A stretch of DNA of 64,000 nucleotides, from positions 36,417-100,416 of the forward strand of contig JBBSYD010000032.1 in NCBI GenBank assembly GCA_038045425.1, given 5' to 3'. The position numbers and the translations under genes were made by a program. This DNA comes from Nanobdellota archaeon (GTDB lineage Archaea; Nanobdellota; Nanobdellia; Pacearchaeales; GW2011-AR1). The notes below the pieces were generated by a model. It ran no database searches. It saw only the letters and a program-made list of their open reading frames with translations, and was not told where the DNA came from. Below are positions 3,116 to 62,086 of this stretch, piece after piece (within the stretch, counting starts at the first letter, position 1; each line of letters begins with the position of its first letter).

Positions 3116-4477
3116 ATGAAAAAGATTTTAATTTTAAGTTTAGTGTTATTACTTCTTATAAGTGGAGTTAGCGGATATACTATTTCCAAAGAAATGAAGT
3201 CGGAGGTTATTTTGGCAGAGGTTGGAAATCCAGTTGTTTTTGATTTGACTATTAATGGAGGTGCAGGAGATGATTTTGCAGAGGTTTATTCGTTATTAGG
3301 ATTAAGATTTGATCCTCAGGCAACATTTAATCTTCCTGGAAGTATTACTAAAGAAGTTAAGGCATATGCTGGAAAGGATTATTTGAATCATCCTGGAAAT
3401 TATATTGTAGATTACTATGTTAGAGGTTCTTTGGGGCAGGTAATGGATAGTTTGTCATTTAGAGTTGTTTCTTTGAAGGATGCAATTGCAATAATTCCTA
3501 GCAATTTAGGATATGATGATACTATTATAGAATTAAGCGTACAAAATACTCAAAATGCTTATATGAATGACGTAGTGTTGACTTTTGATTCTGAATTTGG
3601 TGTTTCTCAACAGAAGCTTAGTTTGGAACCATTCGGGAAAGCTAATGTAAGTATCCCTGTGGATGCAAGTAAATCTAAGAAATTATCTGCTGGAAGATAT
3701 ATTATTACTGCTTCTATTGCAATGGAAGATGCAAAAGTTAAGGTTGAAGGTGTTGTTAATTATCTTGAGAAAGAAGGAACTTCTATAGTTACTGAAAAAG
3801 ATGGATTTATCATTAGAACAACTAAGATAACTAAGAAAAATGAGGGAAATGTTCCTGTGCAAGATAAAATTGAAATAAGTAAAGACGTATTGTCTAGATT
3901 GTTTACTACTTTTTCCGATTCTTCCGATAAATCTGAAAGAAGCGGATTAGGAGTTAATTATATTTGGACTAAGCCATTGCAACCAGGAGAGTCTTGGGTT
4001 GTTTCTAGCACAACTAATTATACCTTGCCATTCTTCCTATTGCTTTTGATAGTTGTTGTAGCAGTATTGGTAAATCTCTATTCTAAGACTAATGTTGTTG
4101 TAAGTAAGCAAGTTTCATATGTTAAAACTAGAGGAGGAGAATTTGCTTTGAAAGTTAGAATTGGAGTTAAAGCAAGAAGTCATGTTGATAGAATACAGGT
4201 TATTGATAGATTGCCTGGAATGACTAAATTGTATGAGAAGTTTGGAATAAAGCCAGACAAGATTGATCCTATGACTAGAAGAATATTCTGGAATGTGTCT
4301 AGATTGCAAGCGGGAGAAGAAAGAGTGTTCTCTTATATTATTTATTCAACTGTTAATGTAGTTGGAAGATTTGAATTGCCTGCTACAACTGCAATATATG
4401 AAAAGGATGGAAAGACACATGAAGTTTTATCCAATAGAGCATTCTTTATGAGTGAGATGAGTTCGCAGGAAGAATAA
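3116..4477 (+). CDS. secreted or cell-surface protein with signal peptide and C-terminal TM anchor
   Basis: ATG at 3116 gives MKKILILSLVLLLLISGVSG (signal-like). A hydrophobic helix LPFFLLLLIVVVAVLVNLY lies near residue 330, followed by a further domain. Confidence 0.5.
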   Translation: MKKILILSLVLLLLISGVSGYTISKEMKSEVILAEVGNPVVFDLTINGGAGDDFAEVYSLLGLRFDPQATFNLPGSITKEVKAYAGKDYLNHPGNYIVDYYVRGSLGQVMDSLSFRVVSLKDAIAIIPSNLGYDDTIIELSVQNTQNAYMNDVVLTFDSEFGVSQQKLSLEPFGKANVSIPVDASKSKKLSAGRYIITASIAMEDAKVKVEGVVNYLEKEGTSIVTEKDGFIIRTTKITKKNEGNVPVQDKIEISKDVLSRLFTTFSDSSDKSERSGLGVNYIWTKPLQPGESWVVSSTTNYTLPFFLLLLIVVVAVLVNLYSKTNVVVSKQVSYVKTRGGEFALKVRIGVKARSHVDRIQVIDRLPGMTKLYEKFGIKPDKIDPMTRRIFWNVSRLQAGEERVFSYIIYSTVNVVGRFELPATTAIYEKDGKTHEVLSNRAFFMSEMSSQEE

Positions 4478-4524
4478 GATTTTTATTTCGGAATGTTTAT
4501 AAATAATATTAGTCTTTAGATTAT

Positions 4525-4728
4525 ATGCAAAATGCTGAGTCTAATTATGATTTCTATATGAGCGAGGATCTTAGTTCTTATAGTGGGGAATGGGTGGCGA
4601 TATCAAATAATAAGATAATCTCTCATGGGAAAGATGTGAGAATGGTTGCAAAAGAGGCAATGATTGTTTGCGGGAATAAGAAGTTTTTACTCTCGAAGAT
4701 TCCTTCAAATGAGACATTGATATTTTAA
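4525..4728 (+). CDS. small DUF5678-like protein, partner of the retropepsin-like protease
   Basis: 67 aa containing GEWVAISNNKIISHG. The stop is immediately followed by the protease gene. Confidence 0.45.
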   Translation: MQNAESNYDFYMSEDLSSYSGEWVAISNNKIISHGKDVRMVAKEAMIVCGNKKFLLSKIPSNETLIF

Positions 4729-4730
4729 AA

Positions 4731-5165
4731 ATGACTTTAACTTATAGGTATAAGGAAGTGTATAGAACTAATAATATTCAAACTAGGACTCCTTCCATCC
4801 CTATGACTTTGTCTGGAAAGGGGATTAAATTTGAATTTACAGTCCTTATTGATTCTGGAGCAGATATTTCGGCAATTCCAAAACAGGTGGCTGAATTATT
4901 AGGATTGGATTTATCTGGGAAAAAAGAAGAAACATTCGGAATTGGAGGTTCTGCTTCTGCAGTTTCATCTAATATTCGTATAGATTTTGGAAAAGTTCAT
5001 GAAAAATATTCTGTGGATTTACCAGTTAAAGTAATTTTATCAGATTATGATTTTCCACCATTAATTGGAAGATCTGTATTTTTTGATAAGTTTAGAATAA
5101 CTTTTGATCAAGCTAAGTTTAATATTCATTTGAAAGCTAATACTAACAATAATCTTCTTGGCTAG
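4731..5165 (+). CDS. retropepsin-like aspartic protease
   Basis: LIDSGADISAIP carries the D-S/T-G-A active-site signature and a second GIGG region. Two-gene module with the upstream small ORF. Confidence 0.65.
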   Translation: MTLTYRYKEVYRTNNIQTRTPSIPMTLSGKGIKFEFTVLIDSGADISAIPKQVAELLGLDLSGKKEETFGIGGSASAVSSNIRIDFGKVHEKYSVDLPVKVILSDYDFPPLIGRSVFFDKFRITFDQAKFNIHLKANTNNNLLG

Positions 5166-5287: not shown

Positions 5288-6094
5288 ATGCATAAAAAGA
5301 GTGAAATAATATTTAGATTAAAAGAGTTAGAAAAGGAATTAGGAAGAAGACCTGTAAAAACAGATAGTCCTTCGCTTTATACCTTGTCAAGAAAATATTT
5401 TGGTACTTGGAATAATATGATGACTGAAGCAGGATATCAATGTAAATTATTTCAAATTCCTGTAACTCCTAAAGAGATTACTTCAGATTTAAGTTATTTT
5501 TTAGGATTAATGTCTACTGATGGGCACATACAAGTAATAAAACAAAGATGGCTGTACCGTGTTATGATGTATACTAGCGAAAAAGAAGAAGTAGAAATGA
5601 TATTAAATATTATTAAAAAGTTGTTTAGTTATACTGCTTCAGTTAGAGCAAGAAAAACAGGATTTTCTAAAAGACCAAATTATGAAATATACATATCTTC
5701 TAAAAAGATTGCATTATTTTTAAATTCGTTAGGAATTCCGATAGGAGCTAAATCCTATAATCTTTTAGTTCCTAAGATGTTCTTTGAGAATAAGCAAGAA
5801 TATTTTTGGGATTATTTAAGGGGAGTCTTTGATGGAGATGGTTCAATTGTTTTTAGTAATAATAATTTTAGCTTTAAAATCTCATCTGGTTCAGTTAGAT
5901 TTCTTGAGGGAATAAATAAGATTCTTATAGAGAAAGGATTTAAGAATTTTAAGATTTCTAAACAAGATGAGTATGTTTGGATTCTAAGAACAAATATAAA
6001 GGAAAATATTAAACAACTATATTCTTGTATTTATAATAATTCTTCGTTTTTTTATCCTCGAAAACAGTTAAAATGGTCTAAGCAGTATATTTAA
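5288..6094 (+). CDS. LAGLIDADG homing endonuclease (double motif) with N-terminal HEAR-like domain
   Basis: LGLMSTDGHI and LRGVFDGDGSI are two LAGLIDADG-type motifs. N-terminal YFGTWNNMMTEAGY resembles the homing-endonuclease-associated repeat. Confidence 0.7.
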   Translation: MHKKSEIIFRLKELEKELGRRPVKTDSPSLYTLSRKYFGTWNNMMTEAGYQCKLFQIPVTPKEITSDLSYFLGLMSTDGHIQVIKQRWLYRVMMYTSEKEEVEMILNIIKKLFSYTASVRARKTGFSKRPNYEIYISSKKIALFLNSLGIPIGAKSYNLLVPKMFFENKQEYFWDYLRGVFDGDGSIVFSNNNFSFKISSGSVRFLEGINKILIEKGFKNFKISKQDEYVWILRTNIKENIKQLYSCIYNNSSFFYPRKQLKWSKQYI

Positions 6095-6111: not shown

Positions 6112-6271
6112 TAATTACATACCCTCCGTAGCTCAATGGCAGAGCGCCCGGCTGTAGTTAATATAACTAGCACAGACTTTCCATATGGAAACAGGATGAA
6201 GTGCGAACAGAGCATTTTCGTTAGAAAATAGCAGAACCCGGGCTACCCAAGTTCGATTCTCGGCGGGGGGA
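6112..6271 (+). tRNA. tRNA-Tyr (anticodon GTA) with an 89-nt intron after position 37 (intron about 6148..6236)
   Basis: Acceptor ccctccg/cgggggg with C1-G72 (archaeal Tyr identity). U8A9, D-arm gctc-aatggca-gagc, anticodon arm cccgg-ctgtag[intron]c-ccggg, T-arm ccaag-ttcgatt-ctcgg (one mismatch), discriminator A. Confidence 0.7.
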
Positions 6272-34967: not shown

Positions 34968-37631
34968 TTATAAATTTGAGCTATAAGGTAAAGATTTTAT
35001 ATAATTCTCCATAAATTCCCAATCTGGATTACCTTTTTTGTCTTTTGGTAGTTTAATCTTCATTTTTTTCAGTTGAGAATTAACTATTGCTCTGCCATAG
35101 GAGAATTTATCTTTCATTTCAAAGTTGAATATTGTAATTAGGAACATAGCCACATCTTTTGTAATCTTATTGTCTTTTGTTCTTATAATATTAATCTTAT
35201 TTCCTGTGAAAAATGGTTCTTCTTGGTAAAATGCTCTAACTCCCTCTGCTCCGATTGTTATGCAATCCCCAATTTCAGGTATTTCCTCATCATGTAAAAT
35301 CTTACCAGCATAACCATTATTAAATGCACTACGAGTAATGTAATTAACTCCTCCCATAGAAAACTCTACGTTTACTTTATGAACAGGTGTTCCCAAAGTA
35401 ACATCAAAAATATCATTTACATTAAACTCTTTCCAGTTGTCGGTATTTATCTTTTTGTTTTCGTTCTTTTCAGAATAAATCTTATTCTCATTCAGAATCT
35501 CCATAAAAGTTAATTCGTCAATATTTTTGTCTAAGATATCAAGTTTTAATTTTATCTTGAATATAATGTAGTCTTTTATACTCTTTGTAAAAAGATTAGA
35601 TTCAAGATATGTATAATCTGTCTTGCTGTGTGCCTGAATAATCCACTCATCTCTTTGATTTATTTTAGTTTTAACGAGATGAAAACCATCACTAAATTTA
35701 TCTGGATTATTTAATTCCTCTAAAAGTTTCTTCCTTATATTTGCCCATTTATCCAAGGCGTCAGTTCTACCTCTATTTTTAGATAAAACCAAACCATCAT
35801 CTTCTAAATTATAAAAGACTATTTCTTTATTATTGTGCGGTTTATTTGTTTCAAAAACAGCTATTGCAGTGTGAGTTGTGGCGTTTGGTCTAAACAAGTC
35901 TTTTGGCATATTAATAACACATTTTAAGGTATGCTTTGATAAAATTCTCTCTCTGGTGTCCTCGTCTTGCATATAAGTTGAAAGAGGAGCAATAATCACA
36001 CCAAACCTACTAACTTTGTCTAATAAATTTTCTAAGAATTGGATTTCTTTTTTAGTTGGATTATCTTTATTATCTTCTCCCCCATAAGGCGGATTTATGA
36101 AACCTATTGTCGGAGATATTCCATCTTTTTTAAGATTACCTAAGATTTCATTTGCTTCTTTTGAAAATGAATCTACGTTGAATATCATGGATTTACCATC
36201 TCCTCTAAAAAGCATATTAGATATTGAAAGAGCATACATGGTAGAGCTTTTCTCAAATCCGATTAACTGGTGTTGTTTTATATTTTTAATTAATTCCGCT
36301 TTGTTTCTTATGTTTGATTGATTAATTTCTAAGATTATTTTATTCATAGCAGATATTAAAAATGCTCCAGTTCCACAGCACGTATCAAGTATTACATCAT
36401 TATTCTTTATTTCCACTAGTTCTGTAAATAGTTTAGTTATATGACTTGGTGTTAAAACTATTCCATTTTTCACATTGCTTATTCCTGCATATCTCAAAAA
36501 TTCTTCATAAAATTTACCTAAGATATCATAATTTGTTTCTTTAGAGAATAAGGGAATAACATTTTTATCCAATTCTTCTAAAATTTCTTTTAAGATGTCT
36601 GTATTGTTTAGGTCTTGGTCTGTCTTGATAAAGGATAGTTCATTTGTTAAAACTTCTATTTTGTCCTTTGGTATCTTCTCATCTTTTAATATTTGAGTTA
36701 TTGTAGTTGGAATATTATTTATTATAGTCTTAGGATTCCAACCAATATATCCATCTTTAAAGTCGTTCTTATCTCCTCTGGTAAATAAACAAATCATTAA
36801 ACCGCTAAGTAAAACAGGTCTTTTTTGAGAATCTAAAGAACGAAGTTTATTGTTTATCTTCTTTGAAGATTCAGATACTTCTCTAATCAATCTTTCCATA
36901 TCTACATTTTCAAAAAATGAGAGGTATTCTTCTTCGTTCAATATTTCTTTAGTTTCTATATCTTTTATCTCGTTCTTATTTATAATAAAAGTAGAAATAA
37001 GATGGCTATACAAATCAAGGATATTACCAGATACGGCTATCCCAACAATCTTCCAATTCTTCAAATACTTTCTAGTTGTTTCAGGTAAGCTACTAACATA
37101 AGTATCTGTAAAGAAAGACAGATAATGTTTTATTCCATCTATTGCATAATTTTCAGGGTCGTTTCCTTCTTTAGACTGATGTTGCTTAATTGTATCTTTA
37201 TTTTCAAGCAAAATTATTAATTTGTTTGCTTCATTGATATATAACAAATCTGGCTCTCCACGATTTCCAGTTTTTCTTTTACTTGCTTTATCTAAAATAG
37301 ATTGAATGACTTTATTATCTGTTTTTTTAATATCCCAAGAGTTCTTATATTTTTTATTATCTTTTATAAAATTATATAAAAATATATCTTTCTTCGCTTC
37401 ATTTTTTCTTTCGTTACTCATGTCTTTTCCTCCAAGAATTTCTCTATAAGCTTTTCCACTTTGTCCGATTTGTTTATTGAGTTTTCTTCGCAGAAGTCGT
37501 TGAATCTTTTGAGAGTTTCTGGAGCTAGAGTTACACTTAAATGCCCCTTTTTCACCTCTCCTCTCCTCATAGCTTAATGATAAGTTATTACTTTTTATAT
37601 CTTGCGTATCCATATTATTAATGTTACTCAT
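34968..37631 (-). CDS. Type IIG restriction-modification enzyme (single chain: PD-(D/E)xK endonuclease, gamma-class N6-adenine methyltransferase and target-recognition domain)
   Basis: N-terminal GEPDLLYI...LIILLENKD is a PD-ExK motif. VLDTCCGTGAFLISA is MTase motif I and GFINPPYGG is motif IV (NPPY). The C-terminal roughly 230 aa are HsdS-like TRD. Size and domain order resemble MmeI. Confidence 0.7.
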   Translation of the reverse strand: MSNINNMDTQDIKSNNLSLSYEERRGEKGAFKCNSSSRNSQKIQRLLRRKLNKQIGQSGKAYREILGGKDMSNERKNEAKKDIFLYNFIKDNKKYKNSWDIKKTDNKVIQSILDKASKRKTGNRGEPDLLYINEANKLIILLENKDTIKQHQSKEGNDPENYAIDGIKHYLSFFTDTYVSSLPETTRKYLKNWKIVGIAVSGNILDLYSHLISTFIINKNEIKDIETKEILNEEEYLSFFENVDMERLIREVSESSKKINNKLRSLDSQKRPVLLSGLMICLFTRGDKNDFKDGYIGWNPKTIINNIPTTITQILKDEKIPKDKIEVLTNELSFIKTDQDLNNTDILKEILEELDKNVIPLFSKETNYDILGKFYEEFLRYAGISNVKNGIVLTPSHITKLFTELVEIKNNDVILDTCCGTGAFLISAMNKIILEINQSNIRNKAELIKNIKQHQLIGFEKSSTMYALSISNMLFRGDGKSMIFNVDSFSKEANEILGNLKKDGISPTIGFINPPYGGEDNKDNPTKKEIQFLENLLDKVSRFGVIIAPLSTYMQDEDTRERILSKHTLKCVINMPKDLFRPNATTHTAIAVFETNKPHNNKEIVFYNLEDDGLVLSKNRGRTDALDKWANIRKKLLEELNNPDKFSDGFHLVKTKINQRDEWIIQAHSKTDYTYLESNLFTKSIKDYIIFKIKLKLDILDKNIDELTFMEILNENKIYSEKNENKKINTDNWKEFNVNDIFDVTLGTPVHKVNVEFSMGGVNYITRSAFNNGYAGKILHDEEIPEIGDCITIGAEGVRAFYQEEPFFTGNKINIIRTKDNKITKDVAMFLITIFNFEMKDKFSYGRAIVNSQLKKMKIKLPKDKKGNPDWEFMENYIKSLPYSSNL

Positions 37632-37654: not shown

Positions 37655-38887
37655 TTATATCTTTGCTTCCATCTCAACAATAAAGTCAGGTTTAATTCCT
37701 CTACAAAACATTTCCATAATTACACAGCAGATATTATGGCAAATTACTTTACATAAAACCTCATTTACTTGAGCGTTCCATTTCTTAGAACGAACAGAAT
37801 CGCCAAACTTAGATTTTATCATATACACCGAGGTCTCCGCGTTTGACCTCTGGTGATATGATTGTAAAAATTCCTCATTGTGTAAAGCAAAATAATGATA
37901 AAGTCTTTTCCAGATTCCACCTTTTCGACTTGGAGTAGAATTTATCTTAAATGGAATAAATGCCTTAGTTCCACTATTTTCTATTAACTCTAAATTATCC
38001 CTTGATAAGTAGGCTTTATCCGCACTTAATTCTTGCATATCAAAGAACTCTTTAGCTGTTTGATATAATTGTTTAAGCTGTGGGCAGTCATTATCAAATT
38101 CAGAAGTTATCTTAACGCTGGTAATTCCATTTGTAATTGTTCCAGTAATGAAATGACATTTAACCCATTTTCTTGAACTTATGGCTTTTCCATGCTTGAA
38201 TGAATACCATCTTTGAAAATTAGAAGTTCCAAATCCCGTGCTGTCTATGGCAAATTTCCTATCAATCTCTTTTAGAGGCAAGGCAGTGATTGTTACTAAT
38301 TGGCTAAGTAAATCGGTTAATTCTTCTTTATTGAAATAATCTGACATAGAACTTCTTGGTGTGATACTTTCTATGAAGTTACTTGATTTTGCCTGTTCCA
38401 TATCTGACGTGAATCTTCTACTTGAAAAAGTGGAATAAACTTTGAAAATCATAGAATAAATAGTATCTCTCAAAGAATTTTTAGGTTTACCAAAAGTATA
38501 AGGTCTCTCTTGTATTTTGCTTGTTAAGTCTGCTAGGAGCTTCATAAACAACTCTTTCTCTTTCGTTTGAGCTAGATTATAGTTATGCCAATCTTGAGCG
38601 TAGGTGACCTTCTTAGTAGCGGTTATAGTCACATTACCTTGCTTGTCTACTTCGTGAGTTACTATAAACTCAACTGCCCAAATATGTTTACACTTACATC
38701 CTCTCTCTTTATGGTCTTTGCAATTACATGAAGTATTATCTCCTCTGCTCTTAACAAAGTAAAATCCTGCTCCAGACTGGCTTGGAACTTTCCATCTACC
38801 TTTTTCATCTTGAACTATTCTTGAAGTCTGAGCTATTACTAAGCCTCTTTGTTTTCTTACTTCGATTGGATTATATTGTGTTTCCAT
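37655..38887 (-). CDS. DDE transposase (IS4/IS5-like DDE_Tnp_1) with N-terminal SWIM zinc finger
   Basis: CNCKDHKERGCKCKHIW is a SWIM finger (CxCx(n)CxH). The DDE candidates are AIDSTGF, LSADKAY and RSNAETSVYMIKSKFG. Confidence 0.7.
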   Translation of the reverse strand: METQYNPIEVRKQRGLVIAQTSRIVQDEKGRWKVPSQSGAGFYFVKSRGDNTSCNCKDHKERGCKCKHIWAVEFIVTHEVDKQGNVTITATKKVTYAQDWHNYNLAQTKEKELFMKLLADLTSKIQERPYTFGKPKNSLRDTIYSMIFKVYSTFSSRRFTSDMEQAKSSNFIESITPRSSMSDYFNKEELTDLLSQLVTITALPLKEIDRKFAIDSTGFGTSNFQRWYSFKHGKAISSRKWVKCHFITGTITNGITSVKITSEFDNDCPQLKQLYQTAKEFFDMQELSADKAYLSRDNLELIENSGTKAFIPFKINSTPSRKGGIWKRLYHYFALHNEEFLQSYHQRSNAETSVYMIKSKFGDSVRSKKWNAQVNEVLCKVICHNICCVIMEMFCRGIKPDFIVEMEAKI

Positions 38888-42633: not shown

Positions 42634-42748
42634 GCGCTAGTAGTTTAGTGGTAAAACGGCTCGTTGCCAACTCTAGGAGTCTAAAGAACTACAATTGTTT
42701 AGACTAGGTAAAAACGAGCAGTCTCGAGTCCGATTCTCGACTTGCGCA
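42634..42748 (+). tRNA. tRNA-Gly (anticodon GCC) with an intron of about 44 nt at or next to the anticodon loop
   Basis: Acceptor gcgctag/cttgcgc (one U-U mismatch), D-arm gttt-agtggta-aaac, anticodon stem gctcg/cgagc separated by about 44 nt, loop ttgccaa, T-arm tcgag-tccgatt-ctcga, discriminator A. Confidence 0.6.
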
Positions 42749-45864: not shown

Positions 45865-45935
45865 GGCCCATTAGGCTAATGGTAGACCGGTTCGTTTACA
45901 CCGAACATGCGGAGGTCCGATTCCTCCATGGGCCA
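45865..45935 (+). tRNA. tRNA-Val (anticodon TAC)
   Basis: Acceptor ggcccat/atgggcc (perfect), anticodon arm gttcg-tttacac-cgaac, T-arm ggagg-tccgatt-cctcc, discriminator A. The D-stem is imperfect. Confidence 0.65.
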
Positions 45936-45938
45936 CTT

Positions 45939-46517
45939 TTATTTTTTATAATTGCCTGGAAATATAAAATAGGCTGCAGTTCCATCATTTTTTAGGAAAG
46001 GAACTTTATATCCTTCTGCGTCTCTTTCAACTCTATCCTTTAATGGGAAAGGGAATTCAAAAGGTCTCCTGGGTAAATTACTTTCTGCAAGAGAATCAAG
46101 ATTAAATATTTGACCTACTCCAGTTTTAATAGTTTTCATCCTGAATAAATCTCCTTGTTTTTCATATTTGAATTCTACAAACAAATGAGATTCTGGTGAA
46201 ATGTCTATACCTAACCAATAAACTTGCCCTCGCTTATCCGGTCTTTTTATATCCATAGATAATTCCATTCCAGAAACAATGCCTCGATCATAATCAACTA
46301 CCAAGCAAGTCTTATTTGTTAATATTGGTTGGGCATTTCTTTCTTCAGACTGTCTTTTTAGAAAATTATGAGTAAAGATCCATCTATGTTCAACATCGCT
46401 AAATAGAAGAATGTCTAAACGCGCTTCTCCCTGTGGAAGACTTATCTTGTATTCTCTTGGAATTTTTCTTCTCATGTTATTTTCAGAATTAGGCTTCTGA
46501 GGTTGCCATCGCCTCAA
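45939..46517 (-). CDS. hypothetical protein, sole ORF between tRNA-Val and its partial downstream duplicate
   Basis: 192-aa ORF with no recognisable integrase motifs. Confidence 0.45.
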   Translation of the reverse strand: MRRWQPQKPNSENNMRRKIPREYKISLPQGEARLDILLFSDVEHRWIFTHNFLKRQSEERNAQPILTNKTCLVVDYDRGIVSGMELSMDIKRPDKRGQVYWLGIDISPESHLFVEFKYEKQGDLFRMKTIKTGVGQIFNLDSLAESNLPRRPFEFPFPLKDRVERDAEGYKVPFLKNDGTAAYFIFPGNYKK

Positions 46518-46604
46518 AAATCTATAAATTAGTTCATTTTAAAACCTTTCGAATTTTATCCTCTTGTAGATTACAGAACAAGTATACCCTTTTAGTTAGA
46601 GTCA

Positions 46605-46655
46605 TTTACACCGAATGGTCGGGAGTTCGATTCCTCCATGGGCCACTTTTATTTT
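46605..46655 (+). repeat. att-like partial duplicate of the tRNA-Val(TAC) 3' half plus 3' flank
   Basis: tttacaccgaa and cgattcctccatgggccacttttatttt are identical to 45895..45905 and 45918..45945. The middle 12 nt differ. Confidence 0.65.
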
Positions 46656-47893: not shown

Positions 47894-48829
47894 TCACCCA
47901 ATAATCTTTTTGAGGGCTTTATATTCTCGGATAAATAATTTTATTGTTGGTTTAAGATCTTGCCTTTTTTGATATGCTTGTAAGGATTCATAATATTCAC
48001 TTCTATTTTTTAAATCAATGTTCATTGGAGGCAGATTGTGTTTAATTAGAATGTTATTTAGAAGAATTCTTCCGACTCGTCCATTTCCATCTACAAATGG
48101 GTGAATATTCTCAAATTGGTCATGAACTACTGCTGCCAAAATTAGTGCAGGATAGCTATTTCTATTCTTTTCATACCATACAACTAGCTCTTTTAATAAA
48201 AACACAACTCTAAACTGCGGGGCTCCCTCGTGTAATATTTCCCCTAAACTATTTGCAACTACTACTTCCTCTCCAGGTTTTCTAAATTGCCCAGCAAACT
48301 TTTTAGAATTCTTAAAAACAGTTCTATGAATTTCTTTAATTAATTCAAGTGAAATATGCTCTTTAGTTTTTCTAATATGTTTTATAGCTTCATTTACTCC
48401 ATATGCTTCGGCAATGTCATTTTTTGGTTTGTCGGGCCATTTATCATGTTCAAGAACTCCCTTAACTTCAACGCTATTTAGTTCACTTCCTTCAATAGCA
48501 TTAGTATTGTATGTAAACAACTCGGAAAAAGTCTGCCATTGCTCTTCCGATAGATGATTTATGCTAATAGGTATACTTTTCTCAATTTTTTTTACAAAAT
48601 CGATATCTTTGATAGACAGTTCAAATTTTAAGGGATCTTTGATGATATTATACTTTCTAATATCTTCAATAATTAGAACTTCTGCTTTAGCTTTTCTTTC
48701 TTCCAATAATTTTTCATCTAAGTCAGCTCCAAGAAACTTTCTTATTTTATGGACTTTGCTTCCTTCTCTAAATGAATGAGATAAATAATATTTTATCTTC
48801 TTTCCCAATTTTCTTTTCTCTAAATGCAT
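47894..48829 (-). CDS. Fic/DOC family protein
   Basis: HPFVDGNGRVGR is the canonical Fic motif HPFx[DE]GNGR. Confidence 0.8.
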   Translation of the reverse strand: MHLEKRKLGKKIKYYLSHSFREGSKVHKIRKFLGADLDEKLLEERKAKAEVLIIEDIRKYNIIKDPLKFELSIKDIDFVKKIEKSIPISINHLSEEQWQTFSELFTYNTNAIEGSELNSVEVKGVLEHDKWPDKPKNDIAEAYGVNEAIKHIRKTKEHISLELIKEIHRTVFKNSKKFAGQFRKPGEEVVVANSLGEILHEGAPQFRVVFLLKELVVWYEKNRNSYPALILAAVVHDQFENIHPFVDGNGRVGRILLNNILIKHNLPPMNIDLKNRSEYYESLQAYQKRQDLKPTIKLFIREYKALKKIIG

Positions 48830-48985: not shown

Positions 48986-50287
48986 ATGATGACTAAGTTC
49001 AAAGCGTTGGGATTATCGGATGGAATGATTGAGGCTATTCGGGGAGCTCATTTTACAGAGCCGAGCGAGATACAGGAGAAAACTATTCCTCTTGTTCTTT
49101 CTGGGAAAGATGTTATTGGTAAATCTGCTACTGGCTCGGGGAAAACTCTTGCATTTGGTGCTGGAATTATTGAGAAAGTGCAGAGATATCATGGAATTCA
49201 GGCATTGATATTAACTCCTACTAGAGAATTGGCTGAGCAGATTACTCAAACATTAAAAAAGTTTTCAGGATATAAGGGATTGAATATTGATGAGGTTTAT
49301 GGAGGAGTTTCCATGGGTCCACAAATATCTAAGTTGAGATATGCTGAAATTGTTGTGGGAACGCCAGGAAGAATTCTAGACCATCTGGAAAGAAGAACGC
49401 TGAGATTGAATCAAGTGAAGTATTTAGTATTAGATGAAGCAGATAGAATGTTAGACATGGGATTCATAAAAGATGTTGAAAAAATTATTCAAATGTGCCC
49501 TGTTGAAAGACAGACTTTACTTTTTTCTGCAACTATTTCTGATGATATTGAGCATATCTCTAAAAAGTATATGATTAATCCGGTTAAGATAACTGTTGGA
49601 GACCAGGTCGATCCTGCTCAGTTATATCAAAAGTATTATGATGTTCCTCAGGAAATGAAGTTTTCTCTTCTTGCTTATTTATTGAGATTGGAAAGAAAGG
49701 GAGTAGTAATGGTATTTTGTAATACCAGAAGAAATGTAGACCATGTGACTAGAGCGTTATATCAGAATGGAATTAATGCCCTTGCAATTCACGGAGGATT
49801 AAGCCAAAATAGAAGAAATGAAACTATGGAAGCATTTCATTCTAGAAAAGCATTGATTCTTGTTTGTACTGATGTGGCTGCAAGAGGATTGGATATAAAA
49901 GATGTTTCACATGTTTATAATTTTGATTTGCCGAATAGTGGGACAGATTATATTCACAGAATAGGAAGAACTGCAAGAGCGGGAAAGAATGGAATTGCAA
50001 TAAGTTTTGTAGGAAGTGGAGAACATGGGGAATTTAGAAATATTTCAAGAGATAAGAATTTAGAAATTGAAAAAGTTATGGTTCCTGAAAATATTCATGT
50101 TCTTCCTCATGTGATAAGTGCACCTTCAAGAGGAACAATGGGAAGAGGAAGAAGGGGAGGAGGAAGACCAGTGAGAGGGCATTATGGGGGAAATAGAAAC
50201 TTCCAAAGTGAAGCACAAAAGTATGGACGAGCGAAGAAAAGAACGGATGGGCCGCATAGACGTAAGAAGAATAAGAGAAGATATTGA
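48986..50287 (+). CDS. DEAD-box ATP-dependent RNA helicase with C-terminal RG-rich tail (paralog of 30799..32208)
   Basis: Q motif, GKSATGSGKT, DEAD, SAT, HRIGRTAR. Strong overall similarity to the other DEAD-box gene. Confidence 0.85.
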   Translation: MMTKFKALGLSDGMIEAIRGAHFTEPSEIQEKTIPLVLSGKDVIGKSATGSGKTLAFGAGIIEKVQRYHGIQALILTPTRELAEQITQTLKKFSGYKGLNIDEVYGGVSMGPQISKLRYAEIVVGTPGRILDHLERRTLRLNQVKYLVLDEADRMLDMGFIKDVEKIIQMCPVERQTLLFSATISDDIEHISKKYMINPVKITVGDQVDPAQLYQKYYDVPQEMKFSLLAYLLRLERKGVVMVFCNTRRNVDHVTRALYQNGINALAIHGGLSQNRRNETMEAFHSRKALILVCTDVAARGLDIKDVSHVYNFDLPNSGTDYIHRIGRTARAGKNGIAISFVGSGEHGEFRNISRDKNLEIEKVMVPENIHVLPHVISAPSRGTMGRGRRGGGRPVRGHYGGNRNFQSEAQKYGRAKKRTDGPHRRKKNKRRY

Positions 50288-50291
50288 TTTG
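50236..50291. repeat. 56-bp direct repeat, copy 1 (3' end of the DEAD-box helicase gene plus 4 bp)
   Basis: gaaaagaacggatgggccgcatagacgtaagaagaataagagaagatattgatttg recurs at 53724..53779 with 2 mismatches. Confidence 0.8.
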
Positions 50292-51954: not shown

Positions 51955-52357
51955 TAAATAAACAATAGTTATAGGTTAATATATTTACCTCTTAAATCAT
52001 AGAAAATATGAACTGACCTGTTCGTAAATATTCTATCATTTTTTTCTATTGGGCTGAATTTGGTCTGAGCGTTTAACACTTTTGACCAAAACAAAATCGT
52101 GATTTATTGTGGCGTTTATACAAGGTACTTAAATAGTTAAGAGTAGTTTAAGATCGTGAGAATCGACCTATATAATCACAAAGAAAGATATCTAAATTGG
52201 AAGAATAATGTTAAATCTATAGAGAATGCAACAAAATAAAATGGTGGAGTGACGTCCTAAAGTGATATAAAATAATAAAGACCTACCTTTTGAATTCTCT
52301 ACCTTGCGATGGAAGTTTAAGTTAAAAAGCCCAATTTATAATTGAGGTTGTTCTTAT

Positions 52358-52423
52358 AAAGTGCTACAAAAAATGTATCACTTAGAAAGTAAAGTGCTAC
52401 AAAAAATGTATCACTTAGAAAGG
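52358..52423. repeat. tandem duplication, 2 x 33 bp (aaagtgctacaaaaaatgtatcacttagaaagt)
   Basis: Two adjacent near-identical units immediately upstream of the likely ATG (52433) of the AAA+ gene. Confidence 0.75.
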
Positions 52424-52432
52424 TTTAAAAAC

Positions 52433-53719
52433 ATGAAAGATTACCCTAAAAATATGAAAAAAGAAGAATTAGACTTTGTCTTATTTGAGCAACAGAAAGA
52501 TTTTGAGGAAGAAGAACCACTTGTAGAAAGAGAACTCACGAAAAAAGCATTGGAATTAATCAATTTGAAACTACCTATAATTGTAACTGGAGTAAGAAGA
52601 TGTGGTAAGTCTTCCTTATTGAAGATAATTAAGAATAAATTATCTCTGAAAAATAAGGAATATTTATATATAAATTTTAACGATGAACGATTTATAGGAT
52701 TTTCTACAGAAAACTTTCAGATAATAACTGACTTTATAGTTGAACAAAAATATAAAGAAAAGTGTTTTCTATTCTTAGATGAGATTCAAGAAGTATCTGG
52801 ATGGGAAAAGTGGATTGACCGAATAAAATCAAAATATCCTATTTTTATTACTGGTTCAAATTCTAGATTATTGAGTAAAGAAATATCTACTATTTTGACT
52901 GGTAGATCGCTAAGCATTGGTCTTACTCCATTTAATTTTACGGAGTTCTTATTATCGAAAAATTTTAACCTAAAAGATTGGAAAATTGATAAGCAAAAGC
53001 AAATTTCTATTCTAACAGAATTTAAAGAGTACTTTGAGATTGGAGGATTCCCAAAAAGAATTTTATCTGGACAAAATATAATCTTGAAAGAGTTATATGA
53101 CCAAATTATTTATAGAGATATTATAAATCGATTTCCAAAAAGCAATGCTAAATCTATAAAAGAAATTTCAGTATACTTATTGTCAAATCCTTCTTCTTTG
53201 ATAAGTGTAAGAAATATGTCTAAAATAACAGGCGTAAAGAACCTCTTAACAGCGAAAGCAATTATAGATTCTTTTGAGAATGCATTTTTATTCTTCTTTA
53301 TCAATAAATTTGATTATTCGGTAAAAAAACAAACACAAAATCCTCGAAAAGCTTACTGTGTTGATAATGGATTTATCGCCTCGCTAGGATTTAGAATGTC
53401 TGATGATAAAGGTAAACTTCTTGAAAATTTAGTAGCTATAGAACTTAAAAGAAGAGAGAAAGAGATATTTTACTATTCAGATAAAAATGAATGTGACTTC
53501 TTAATACGAGAAAATAATAAGATAACTCAAGCAATTCAGGTTTGTTATGATGTAAACGAACAAAACAAAGAAAGAGAATTTAAAGGGTTGGTTGATGCAA
53601 TGAACAAATTTGATTTAAAAGAAGGAATAATTCTAACATACACTCAACAAGAAGAATTAGACTTTGAAGGTAAAAAAATTAAAATGATTCCTGTCTGGAA
53701 GTGGTTACTTATAAAATGA
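52433..53719 (+). CDS. AAA+ superfamily ATPase with C-terminal DUF4143-type domain
   Basis: GVRRCGKSSL (Walker A) and LFLDEIQEV (Walker B), with the usual archaeal ATPase/DUF4143 architecture. Confidence 0.65.
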   Translation: MKDYPKNMKKEELDFVLFEQQKDFEEEEPLVERELTKKALELINLKLPIIVTGVRRCGKSSLLKIIKNKLSLKNKEYLYINFNDERFIGFSTENFQIITDFIVEQKYKEKCFLFLDEIQEVSGWEKWIDRIKSKYPIFITGSNSRLLSKEISTILTGRSLSIGLTPFNFTEFLLSKNFNLKDWKIDKQKQISILTEFKEYFEIGGFPKRILSGQNIILKELYDQIIYRDIINRFPKSNAKSIKEISVYLLSNPSSLISVRNMSKITGVKNLLTAKAIIDSFENAFLFFFINKFDYSVKKQTQNPRKAYCVDNGFIASLGFRMSDDKGKLLENLVAIELKRREKEIFYYSDKNECDFLIRENNKITQAIQVCYDVNEQNKEREFKGLVDAMNKFDLKEGIILTYTQQEELDFEGKKIKMIPVWKWLLIK

Positions 53720-53723
53720 CTAG

Positions 53724-53779
53724 GAAAAGAACGGATGGACCACATAGACGTAAGAAGAATAAGAGAAGATATTGATTTG
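53724..53779. repeat. 56-bp direct repeat, copy 2
   Basis: 54 of 56 identical to 50236..50291. Would encode MTRKRTDGPHRRKKNKRRY if translated. Confidence 0.8.
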
Positions 53780-56011: not shown

Positions 56012-56023
56012 TTTGATTATTGG

Positions 56024-56096
56024 TAGCAGGTGTTGGAATTGAACCAAACATTTCCAGGATGTAATCCTGGCGGGCTAACCATTACCCCAACCTGCC
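56024..56096 (-). tRNA. tRNA, predicted Val (anticodon TAC), with encoded CCA at 56021..56023
   Basis: Reverse complement reads ggcaggt-tg-gggt-aatggtta-gccc-g-ccagg-attacat-cctgg-aaatg-tttgg-ttcaatt-ccaac-acctgct-a-cca. This gives G1-U72 wobble and one T-stem mismatch. Confidence 0.55.
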
Positions 56097-60083: not shown

Positions 60084-60144
60084 TTAGATTTTCTTGTTTG
60101 AGTGTACAACTTTTTCTGAAATTCGTTGGCTCATGACATAATTA

Positions 60145-60328: not shown

Positions 60329-60400
60329 GGCTTCATAGTCTAGTGGTAGGACAAATCTTTCACGTGGATTGGGCAGGGGTTCAATTCCCCTTGGGGCCAT
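60329..60400 (+). tRNA. tRNA-Val (anticodon CAC)
   Basis: Acceptor ggcttca/tggggcc (two G-U pairs), anticodon arm aatct-ttcacgt-ggatt, T-arm agggg-ttcaatt-cccct, discriminator A. The D-stem is short. Confidence 0.55.
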
Positions 60401-60470
60401 TTTAGATTAAAACTGGACGTATCAGGAAAAGAGATAATTGATAAGTTTATAGAATTAGTTTATTCAATTT

Positions 60471-60938
60471 TCAAAAAAGAGATCTTAGATTTCCTAAATA
60501 TACCTTATTTTCTTTAGGATTTCTTAAGTCTTCTGTAGGCGCCCAAGTAGCAAATTCTTTCTGATTTAAATTAAATGGTCCTGGAGAAATATTACAGAAA
60601 ATTGAATCTGGTTCTAATGCAAAACATGAATGCCAAATTCCTCCATTAACTAAGTGATAGTTTGTTCTTTCCCTACTTAATATAAATTTTTCATGAAGCT
60701 TTCCTTGTTTATCAAATGTGACTAGTGCAATACTTCCCCTTATGGGCATCCAAACTTCTTCAGCTTGATGTCTGTGTGGTTGTACATAACTTGCTGGTTG
60801 AATAGCATTATATAGTATCTGAAATCCTTTATAATTTTTATCTGTTAGAGGCATCGCAACTCTTCCTCTTTGTGCGGTTCTTGATTTTTCAACTAATGCA
60901 TCTAAATCATTGTTACTTATGTCTAACTGGTTTTTCAT
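60471..60938 (-). CDS. cupin-fold protein (WbuC-like)
   Basis: HRHQAEEVWMPIRGSIALVTFDKQGK is a cupin metal-site pattern. Sole ORF between tRNA-Val(CAC) and its partial duplicate. Confidence 0.45.
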   Translation of the reverse strand: MKNQLDISNNDLDALVEKSRTAQRGRVAMPLTDKNYKGFQILYNAIQPASYVQPHRHQAEEVWMPIRGSIALVTFDKQGKLHEKFILSRERTNYHLVNGGIWHSCFALEPDSIFCNISPGPFNLNQKEFATWAPTEDLRNPKENKVYLGNLRSLF

Positions 60939-61080
60939 ATAAATTGCTACTAAGAGGGGTTTTTAAATTCTTGCTTTTGTTACTTCTTAATAGTTATAAA
61001 GATAAGTTGTATAAAAATTAGATAAATGCAAGTTAGGAAACAATAAAGAGTATAAAAAAAGATTGAAAACTAATTCATAC

Positions 61081-61120
61081 TTTCACGTGAGGAAGGCAAG
61101 TATCTCCCTTGGGGCCATTT
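61081..61120 (+). repeat. att-like partial duplicate of the tRNA-Val(CAC) 3' half plus flank
   Basis: tttcacgtg (same as 60358..60366) and cccttggggccattt (same as 60388..60402) separated by a divergent 16-nt middle. Confidence 0.6.
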
Positions 61121-61364
61121 ATTCTCTTTTTGACCTTAGAGGTCCAAGGTTAGGAATTATAATTTCTCCAGTTATATGGCTCCTATCTTTTCCAACATAA
61201 ATTCTATTGCCCTCTGCAGATTGAGATACTAAAGCAGAATAATTTTCTAGTGCTCTTCGAATTACTTCCGTTCTAGAAGCCGCGCCAGTTGCTTCCAAGA
61301 GTTCAGCTAAACGGGATTCATCAACGCCAGGTAACTCTAAATTAAATCGATATTTTTTGGGCAT
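61119..61364 (-). CDS. ribbon-helix-helix (CopG/Arc-like) DNA-binding protein
   Basis: RFNLELPGVDESRLAELLEATGAASRTEVIRRALENY has the RHH pattern. The stop abuts the att-like repeat. Confidence 0.5.
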   Translation of the reverse strand: MPKKYRFNLELPGVDESRLAELLEATGAASRTEVIRRALENYSALVSQSAEGNRIYVGKDRSHITGEIIIPNLGPLRSKRE

Positions 61365-61444: not shown

Positions 61445-62086
61445 ATGGATGAAGTATTTTTTCAGGAATTGCGAAAGAAAGTAAAACCTTATTTTATCGA
61501 GGGAGGAAGTCATGCGTTTGATCATGTTGAGAGAGTTTACAATCTTGCATTGAAGTTAGCTAATACTGAGAAAAATGTGGATTTAGATGTGCTTAAGGCG
61601 GCAGTTTTACTTCATGATGTTGCTAGACAAAAAGAAGATAAAAAAGAATGCGAATGCCATGCGGAAGAAGGTGCGAAGATGGCTGAAAAAATTTTGAATG
61701 AGATGAATTTTCAAGAAGATAAAATAAAAAAAGCTTCTTATGCCATTTATGTGCATAGACATAGTAAAGGAATGAAGGCAGAAACGAAGGAAGCTGAAAT
61801 TCTTCAGGATGCAGATAGACTTGATGCACTTGGAGCGATTACAATTGGAAGAATGTTTTCTAGTGGAGGAGAATTAAATCGTCCGTTGTATAATCCTAGT
61901 GTTCCTCTTGGAGATAAATCTGCTAAGTTTGAGACTTCTACTCTTCATGGATTTTATACTAAGATATTCAAGATAAAACCTGAGTGTTTTAATACTGATG
62001 AGGCAAAGAAAATTGCTAAGGGGAGATATAAGTTTGTTGAGGAATTTGTGGATAGATTTTTGAAAGAGTGGAATGGAGAATTATAA
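61445..62086 (+). CDS. HD-domain phosphohydrolase
   Basis: HAFDHVERV...LLHDVAR...DADRLDALG carries the H..HD..D metal-binding residues. Confidence 0.7.
   Translation: MDEVFFQELRKKVKPYFIEGGSHAFDHVERVYNLALKLANTEKNVDLDVLKAAVLLHDVARQKEDKKECECHAEEGAKMAEKILNEMNFQEDKIKKASYAIYVHRHSKGMKAETKEAEILQDADRLDALGAITIGRMFSSGGELNRPLYNPSVPLGDKSAKFETSTLHGFYTKIFKIKPECFNTDEAKKIAKGRYKFVEEFVDRFLKEWNGEL

Follow-up and report, generated by a model that had tools for sequence, protein, structure and literature searches.

How does a gene for a valine tRNA come to be followed, about 0.7 kb downstream, by a copy of part of itself, with a single gene between the two? The question is raised by the tRNA-Val(CAC) locus at position 60329 of a 64-kb stretch of archaeal DNA (the window), which is part of a 108-kb contig and has a G+C content of ~0.32. 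The host is a Pacearchaeota (DPANN) archaeon represented by a metagenome-assembled genome from Hainich groundwater (well H43, 0.1–0.2 μm filters); the NCBI protein label for the window is 'Nanoarchaeota archaeon', homologues of the neighboring genes come from Pacearchaeota, and archaeal ribosomal proteins are encoded nearby. We refer to the segment at this locus as islet 2 and to a segment at the tRNA-Val(TAC) locus at 45865 as islet 1. A preliminary description, which had rightly recognized the same layout of tRNA, one open reading frame (ORF) and partial tRNA copy at both genes, proposed either recurrent integration or a family of mini-elements that target tRNA-Val. We suggest that one part of this proposal, a footprint of site-specific integration left twice, is to be retained, whereas the family is not.

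Two blocks of the tRNA-Val(CAC) gene recur downstream of it. The 10-mer CTTTCACGTG, which runs from the end of the anticodon stem through the loop to the first base of the 3' strand, is found at 60357–60366 and 61080–61089, and the 15-mer CCCTTGGGGCCATTT, which spans the 3' strands of the T-stem and the acceptor stem, the discriminator and 3 nt of trailer, at 60388–60402 and 61106–61120. With both strands of the 64 kb considered, each block is present in exactly two copies, compared to chance expectations of 0.05 for CTTTCACGTG and 0.04 for CCCTTGGGGCCATTT (2 mismatches permitted) obtained by shuffling the window, and none of the shuffles contained two matches to either. Order and strand of the blocks are kept in the copy, at an offset of 718–723 bp downstream. 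The segment between them measures 16 nt in the copy (AGGAAGGCAAGTATCT) vs 21 nt in the tRNA; about half of its positions match upon alignment. This middle is 5 nt shorter than its counterpart, and the copy lacks the T-arm. Far beyond chance, in register and on the same strand, the repeated blocks support the view that islet 2 represents the left and right attachment-site scars (attL and attR) left by an element that integrated site-specifically into the tRNA-Val(CAC) 3' end and of which an integrase-less remnant persists. We consider this explanation reasonably probable.

Could the copy instead be a gene in its own right? Split tRNA genes are known in Nanoarchaeota, and the partial copy might be a functional RNA, either the 3' half of a split tRNA or a tRNA-like regulatory element. 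However, the Rfam tRNA model matched neither this copy (61080..61120) nor its counterpart in islet 1 (46602..46655), the islet 2 fragment region forms no stable hairpin (minimum free energy −1.6 kcal/mol, z = +1.0), the islet 1 fragment has no stable fold either (z = +0.39), and an intact tRNA-Val(CAC) gene is present. A functional RNA thus appears exceedingly improbable, and a 3'-half gene of a split tRNA, in particular, is effectively refuted by the missing T-arm (5 nt shorter, no stem) and by the existence of the intact gene. Such tRNA-like fragments could mislead tRNA annotation.

The sole ORF of islet 2 covers positions 2–132 of the 132 positions of the WbuC profile TIGR04366 and is thus a full-length WbuC gene, not an integrase fragment; this apparently foreign-type cargo further supports an integration footprint. 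In a word-indexed search of a 5.8-billion-protein collection, the sensitivity of which is bounded by the word index, the protein found only two homologues besides itself, both bacterial-type with 35–36% identity and one of them named Lacunisphaera; no other occurrence above 36% identity was seen in this collection. Judged from these sequence comparisons, the gene seems to have been acquired from bacteria, even though the islet and its flanks do not differ in G+C content; and since only two distant homologues were found, it does not appear to be a recurring cassette. On the right-hand side, the stop codon of the RHH gene (complement of 61119–61121) overlaps the final two bases of the repeated block. 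The anatomy given in the preliminary description, with an anticodon-loop block and a tRNA 3' end recurring ~720 bp downstream around a divergent middle, a single enclosed minus-strand cupin-family ORF and an RHH (CopG-like) gene directly following, is therefore correct in each of these points. Coordinates of the features are compiled in Table 1.

Table 1. Features of the two tRNA-Val islets and their flanks (window coordinates).
Feature	Position	Strand	Basis
Intact tRNA-Val(TAC)	45865..45936	+	ARAGORN, Rfam; 100% identical to L091 tRNA
Islet 1 cargo ORF, 178 aa, all-beta family	45939..46475	-	128 clusters, AlphaFold model
Partial tRNA-Val(TAC) copy, putative attR, 54 nt (fragment 1)	46602..46655	+	85% identity, last 28 nt exact, 710 bp downstream
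Intact tRNA-Val(CAC), no encoded CCA, putative attL side	60329..60399	+	ARAGORN; Rfam RF00005 59.9 bits, full length
15-nt core copy 1, CCCTTGGGGCCATTT	60388..60402	+	exact repeat, two in window, 0.04 expected
Islet 2 body, 680 bp: 71-nt spacer, WbuC gene, 141-nt AT-rich upstream region	60400..61079	.	sequence; G+C 0.30-0.32
WbuC-family cupin fold metalloprotein, 155 aa, full length	60471..60938	-	TIGR04366 94.3 bits, cut-off 42; PF19480
Partial tRNA-Val(CAC) copy, putative attR (fragment 2)	61080..61120	+	CTTTCACGTG block, 16-nt middle, 15-nt core
RHH (CopG-type) gene, 81 aa, host-side flank	61119..61364	-	PF01402 RHH_1 22.0 bits, cut-off 20.5
HD-domain gene, conserved in Pacearchaeota	61445..62086	+	PF01966; L091, L011

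Islet 1 likewise contains one ORF on the minus strand, of 192 aa if read from a TTG codon and of 178 aa if the start is placed at the ATG, as gene callers do, with its stop codon and last two codons inside the repeated core. The family of the 178-aa protein comprises proteins of ~180 aa in 128 clusters (E ≤ 0.001; best identity 46%), and AlphaFold modeled the protein with confidence as an all-beta structure, with a pLDDT (predicted local distance difference test) of 88.6. It had no Pfam, NCBIfam or PHROG match, and the predicted model had no significant PDB or viral fold match. It is a conserved, unnamed family and not a recombinase; going by the model, it may represent an undescribed fold family. 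In fragment 1, the anticodon loop is kept, while variable loop and T-stem 5' strand diverge. The divergent strand, GGGAG, pairs only incompletely with the identical 3' strand, CCTCC, and fragment 1 is therefore a chimera. Fragment 1 is followed by the upstream region of NIF3. Together with the RHH stop codon that lies in the islet 2 core, this leaves the host genes on both right flanks unharmed, as expected for an integration footprint.

The closest relative found, a 4.2-kb Logan contig (L091), is collinear with this part of the window, in the order 82-aa ORF, tRNA-Val(TAC), NIF3 and DEAD helicase, and its 82-aa ORF, NIF3, HD-domain gene and helicase are 81–91% identical in tblastx segments. 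Its interval between tRNA-Val(TAC) and NIF3 holds the HD gene and a 76-aa ORF, and neither the islet 1 ORF nor a tRNA fragment; islet 1 is thus absent from a close relative. As the intact tRNA-Val(TAC) gene of the window is 100% identical to that of the islet-less contig over 75 nt, we take it to be native and the divergent arm to be the incoming part. In a separate difference between the two, a Fic-domain gene (47894–48829, minus strand) lies between NIF3 and the DEAD helicase in the window, while these genes are adjacent in L091; a 64% identical Fic gene resides elsewhere in another relative, L095.

Both partial copies show the same mosaic, in which the anticodon loop is kept, the variable loop and the 5' side of the T-stem are divergent, and the 3' core is exact (15/15 in islet 2 and 28/28 in islet 1) and extends 3 to 9 nt past the tRNA. 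This pattern fits a foreign, tRNA-Val-like arm of an element's attachment site (attP) joined to a host core, and not the uniform decay of a displaced host half, which is unlikely because 25/25 matches in two blocks flank a middle that matches at only half of its positions. The same observations bear on an old local duplication of the tRNA, in which one copy would have decayed to a pseudo-tRNA and a gene would have landed between the two later. The degenerate middle of fragment 2, with its 5-nt deletion, would suit such a history; however, identity is not uniform but bimodal (25/25 in the blocks, ~8/16 in the middle), nothing of the 5' half is present, and L091 has an identical tRNA-Val(TAC) without fragment 1. 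Fragment 1 is consequently not an ancient conserved pseudo-tRNA in a syntenic position, the outcome that the preliminary description had named as fatal to its proposal, and we rate a local duplication as very unlikely.

Based on these results, we suggest the following course of events. A circular element would have carried an attP similar to a tRNA-Val(CAC) 3' half of another lineage, and recombination between this attP and the host tRNA would have taken place inside the 15-nt core CCCTTGGGGCCATTT. On the left, the host tRNA would have remained intact; on the right, the element's tRNA-like arm, with its conserved anticodon loop, different variable region and damaged T-arm, would have become joined to the host core and the RHH gene. 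What remains today, presumably a deletion-worn remnant of a larger element, is 0.7 kb with an intact, probably expressed bacterial-type WbuC gene, ~140 nt of upstream sequence and no recombinase; at most, it might be movable if a matching integrase were supplied in trans. Islet 1 would have arisen at tRNA-Val(TAC) by the same route from an unrelated element. We infer the action of an integrase at the junctions, the place of the crossover and the decay of a larger element. Direct observations are the repeated blocks, a tRNA gene that is intact, one intact gene of apparently foreign type, no integrase, and a close relative free of islet 1.

Several observations weigh against this integration scenario. 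A scan of 53 window ORFs, among them every one of at least 150 aa, detected no integrase, either inside or outside the islets; three ORFs in this size class had no family match. None of the viral contigs carried a matching attP when queried with the att pattern, with each of the two divergent arms (TTCACGTGAGGAAGGCAAGTATCT and ACACCGAATGGTCGGGAGTT), with either core or with the WbuC protein; nine 16-mer matches lay in non-tRNA contexts and are chance matches. The composition of islet 2 (G+C 0.30–0.32) is that of its flanks and shows no anomaly. L091 does not provide a clean empty site, as the HD gene and the 76-aa ORF stand in the place of islet 1 and, since they fill the interval, at least one further rearrangement is needed to relate the two. 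No empty site for islet 2 was found among four further relatives (L095, L097, L099 and L100). Finally, the similar sizes (710 and 718 bp) and the single antisense ORF of each islet would be a coincidence under pure decay. In a separate search, the exact gapped att pattern had no match in GTDB species genomes.

The four relatives queried for islet 2 encode DnaK proteins 88–92% identical to that of the window and share with it only the genes DnaJ-GrpE-DnaK. Homology stops at the DnaK stop codon, no tRNA-Val follows, and the genes downstream differ in each. From window position 60084 onward, the DNA after this stop codon differs in the window and all four relatives, and L100 is without ~6.5 kb that is present downstream of DnaK in L097; this region is a hot spot at which DNA is inserted, deleted or rearranged. 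Within the host population, all ten contigs that carry the WbuC or the RHH protein (10/10, from several samples) also carry islet 2; among those compared, identity is at least 99.98% and there is no empty site. Islet 2 is fixed in the sampled population.

The HD gene connects the two loci. In the window, it belongs to the tRNA-Val(CAC) locus, where it comes after the RHH gene, 325 bp past fragment 2; in L091 (1900–2532) and in the more distant relative L011 (6001–6642) it follows tRNA-Val(TAC) at a distance of 7–12 nt. The compared gene orders indicate at least one further rearrangement, in which genes moved from one tRNA-Val locus to the other. Additional relatives with this linkage were not obtained: a scan of metagenome contigs with the HD profile returned 80 loci, with a tRNA-Val beside the HD gene only in L011, and the HD protein as an anchor in GTDB species genomes gave no confirmed relative, the 8-mer patterns being too specific.

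This relocation could also point to a different origin of the islets, namely recombination that was not site-specific, either among the tRNA-Val genes or with incoming DNA of a related archaeon, which shuffled the adjacent segments by a homologous route, by homology-facilitated illegitimate recombination or through a recombinase of relaxed specificity acting on tRNA-like sites. Besides the HD gene, which has changed its tRNA-Val partner, such an origin is favored by the presence of three tRNA-Val genes within 15 kb of the window, by a gene order that varies among close relatives near DnaK and on both sides of tRNA-Val(TAC), and by the resemblance of the divergent arms to pieces of other tRNA-Val genes; for instance, GAGGAAGGC-AAGT from the middle of fragment 2 is similar to GAGGAAGGCGAAGT in a tRNA-Val of L011. 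However, the resident tRNA stayed intact in both events, the fragments lack the 5' half, and no reciprocal hybrid tRNA is present. Moreover, copies on the same strand that reach from the anticodon arm to a few nucleotides past the tRNA are a hallmark of integrase-type att sites. We therefore regard recombination of this kind as unlikely and continue to favor site-specific integration. In this lineage, tRNA-Val genes sit at the borders of gene-order changes.

The two islets have a near-identical geometry, with lengths of 710 vs 718 bp, one antisense ORF, its stop codon near attL and 125–141 nt of upstream sequence beside attR. Beyond this geometry, they have little in common. Outside the tRNA parts, no sequence similarity was detected, local alignment scores not exceeding the shuffle mean; the cargo genes, a WbuC cupin and an all-beta protein, are unrelated; and the repeated cores differ, being 15 nt vs 28 nt long and derived from different tRNAs. 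The window has five tRNA genes by ARAGORN and Rfam, three for Val, an intron-containing one for Tyr and one for Gly, and with 3/5 being Val, the chance that both occupied sites are Val is ~0.3. For this reason, two occupied Val sites provide no evidence of Val targeting. The proposed family of mini-elements directed at tRNA-Val finds no support in these findings taken together (unrelated islets and cargo, no recombinase found, 3/5 tRNAs Val, a WbuC gene not seen elsewhere above 36% identity and duplications at tRNA-Ser and tRNA-Met elsewhere, see below). As to the checks proposed with it, the cores of the two att pairs differ, and the 155-aa WbuC ORF did not recur above 36% identity among the 5.8 billion proteins. 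No more duplicates of tRNA 3' parts were added in the window or in L001; short ones occur at a tRNA-Ser gene of L019 and a tRNA-Met gene of L083.

The matched geometry would be accommodated if each islet were a working single-gene cassette, that is, a 0.7-kb unit of one ORF and a tRNA-like site, moved by a recombinase encoded elsewhere in the genome or by a helper, comparable to integron cassettes or to the cis-mobilizable elements (CIMEs) discussed below. In favor of this, two unrelated cargos share a 710/718-bp layout, both enclosed ORFs are intact, a third direct-repeat islet without an integrase lies nearby, and the closest relative has other genes in the interval that follows tRNA-Val(TAC). 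Yet the 64 kb encode no candidate recombinase. A single unit is present per tRNA and there are no arrays, as a search with up to 3 mismatches found no further partial copies in the window or in L001, which extends ~7 kb past its 3' end. In addition, the recombination sites share neither sequence nor structure and the fragments are unfolded, the WbuC unit was found nowhere else, all ten population contigs are occupied and those compared are ≥99.98% identical without an empty site, and a size match with n = 2 may be due to chance. We consider working cassettes quite unlikely; the islet geometry and the HD relocation keep a small probability for trans-mobilized cassettes. Distinctly improbable, in our view, is the broader possibility that Pacearchaeota capture single genes as ~0.7-kb cassettes at tRNA 3' ends through an integron-like system whose recombinase is encoded elsewhere; if such a system existed, the matching geometry, the third islet and the swapped content after the L091 tRNA-Val(TAC) could be its outputs. 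Working cassettes would imply an unrecognized trans-acting recombinase in Pacearchaeota, which the present evidence does not require.

Other repeats were seen in the window and in additional contigs. In L019 (~4410–4540, minus strand), a 22-nt repeat of the tRNA-Ser(GGA) 3' end, GTGTGGGCGTTTTAGAATCGAA, lies ~100 nt after the tRNA, and in L083 (~4820–5010, minus strand), an 18-nt repeat of the tRNA-Met 3' end lies 173 nt after the tRNA. Both duplications are what one would expect if the DNA between att sites were progressively deleted. The window itself has a 56-nt direct repeat of 96% identity (50236–50291 and 53724–53779, 3.49 kb apart), in which the final ~50 nt of the DEAD-helicase ORF (48986–50287) occur a second time. 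The enclosed insert contains ORFs of 174, 121 and 126 aa without a family match and an AAA_14/DUF4143 ATPase gene (52361–53719), at the start of which a perfect 33-nt tandem duplication is found (52357–52422). This insert looks like a third integrated islet, situated in the 3' end of a protein gene and without a recognizable integrase, and it lies within the same 16 kb as islets 1 and 2. Together, the L019 and L083 duplications and the 56-nt-repeat insert suggest frequent integration followed by deletion, as expected in a streamlined genome.

The remaining tRNA genes and further mobile or defense-type content are noted for completeness. An intron-containing tRNA-Tyr(GTA) gene of 150 nt (6122–6271) directly follows a LAGLIDADG-type ORF (5288–6094), and a tRNA-Gly(GCC) gene of 115 nt, also intron-containing, is located at 42634–42748; both were caught by Rfam and by ARAGORN in intron mode and not by ARAGORN with default settings. 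A second tRNA-Val(TAC) gene (56021–56096, minus strand) is very unlike the gene at 45865 in sequence and, alone among the three Val genes, encodes its CCA end. The presence of this isoacceptor in duplicate suggests, for a small genome, a foreign origin of one copy. A gene for an IS4-type DDE transposase (37655–38887, minus strand) adjoins a gene for an 887-aa protein with an N6-DNA-methylase domain (34968–37631, minus strand).

How does islet 2 compare to known systems? That tRNA genes serve as integration sites and that partial tRNA copies mark attR is textbook knowledge; Reiter and colleagues in 1989 and Williams in 2002 are said to have described islands and elements of this kind. Islet 2 resembles them in having an intact tRNA at one end, a same-strand 3' repeat at the other and an apparently foreign-type cargo, and in a repeat that reaches from the anticodon or T-arm region to a few nucleotides past the tRNA. 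It differs from the archaeal integrated elements of 9–23 kb, in which tRNA fragments mark attR (PMC9897764), in comprising only 0.7 kb and one gene, in lacking an integrase and a compositional signal, and in a repeat that is bipartite with a divergent middle. In short, islet 2 has the boundaries of a tRNA-integrated island and does not have its integrase.

Two systems with more specialized machinery were considered and rejected. Integron cassettes, too, combine a single ORF with one recombination site and contain no internal recombinase. The ORF of islet 2, however, is antisense to the anchoring gene, and no intI, attI or array accompanies it; attC-type hairpins are missing from both fragments (z = +1.0 and +0.39), and no integrase was found. 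Elements with a partitioned integrase of the SSV (Sulfolobus spindle-shaped virus) type are archaeal, integrate at the 3' part of tRNA genes and leave a direct repeat. Unlike islet 2, they have their att inside int, so that the repeats are bordered by int(N) and int(C) pieces; here, there are no int pieces, and the enclosed ORF is a complete WbuC gene (profile positions 2–132/132).

CIMEs are decayed integrative and conjugative elements (ICEs) or integrative and mobilizable elements (IMEs) retaining attL and attR and having lost the genes for integration and transfer (PMC5704250). Going by its sequence, islet 2 appears to have this structure, with attL and attR kept around a single WbuC ORF and no integration or transfer genes, and it is likewise small and situated at a tRNA 3' end. 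The difference lies in the setting, since CIMEs were defined in Firmicutes alongside related ICEs whose integrase acts on them, whereas the host of islet 2 is a DPANN archaeon, for which no helper was found, either as an integrase in the window or as a viral contig with a matching att.

Also comparable are genomic islets, horizontally acquired segments of <10 kb beside tRNA genes (PMC2704930), which islet 2 matches in size class, in its association with a tRNA and in having one accessory gene, although this term is descriptive and implies no mechanism. What the locus most probably presents is an ordinary footprint of an old mobile-element insertion, and not clear evidence for a new kind of mini-element. 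Its value lies in offering a concrete case in which a genome-reduced DPANN archaeon would have gained a bacterial-type gene by insertion at a tRNA 3' end, a fresh example of an already known kind in a little-studied lineage.

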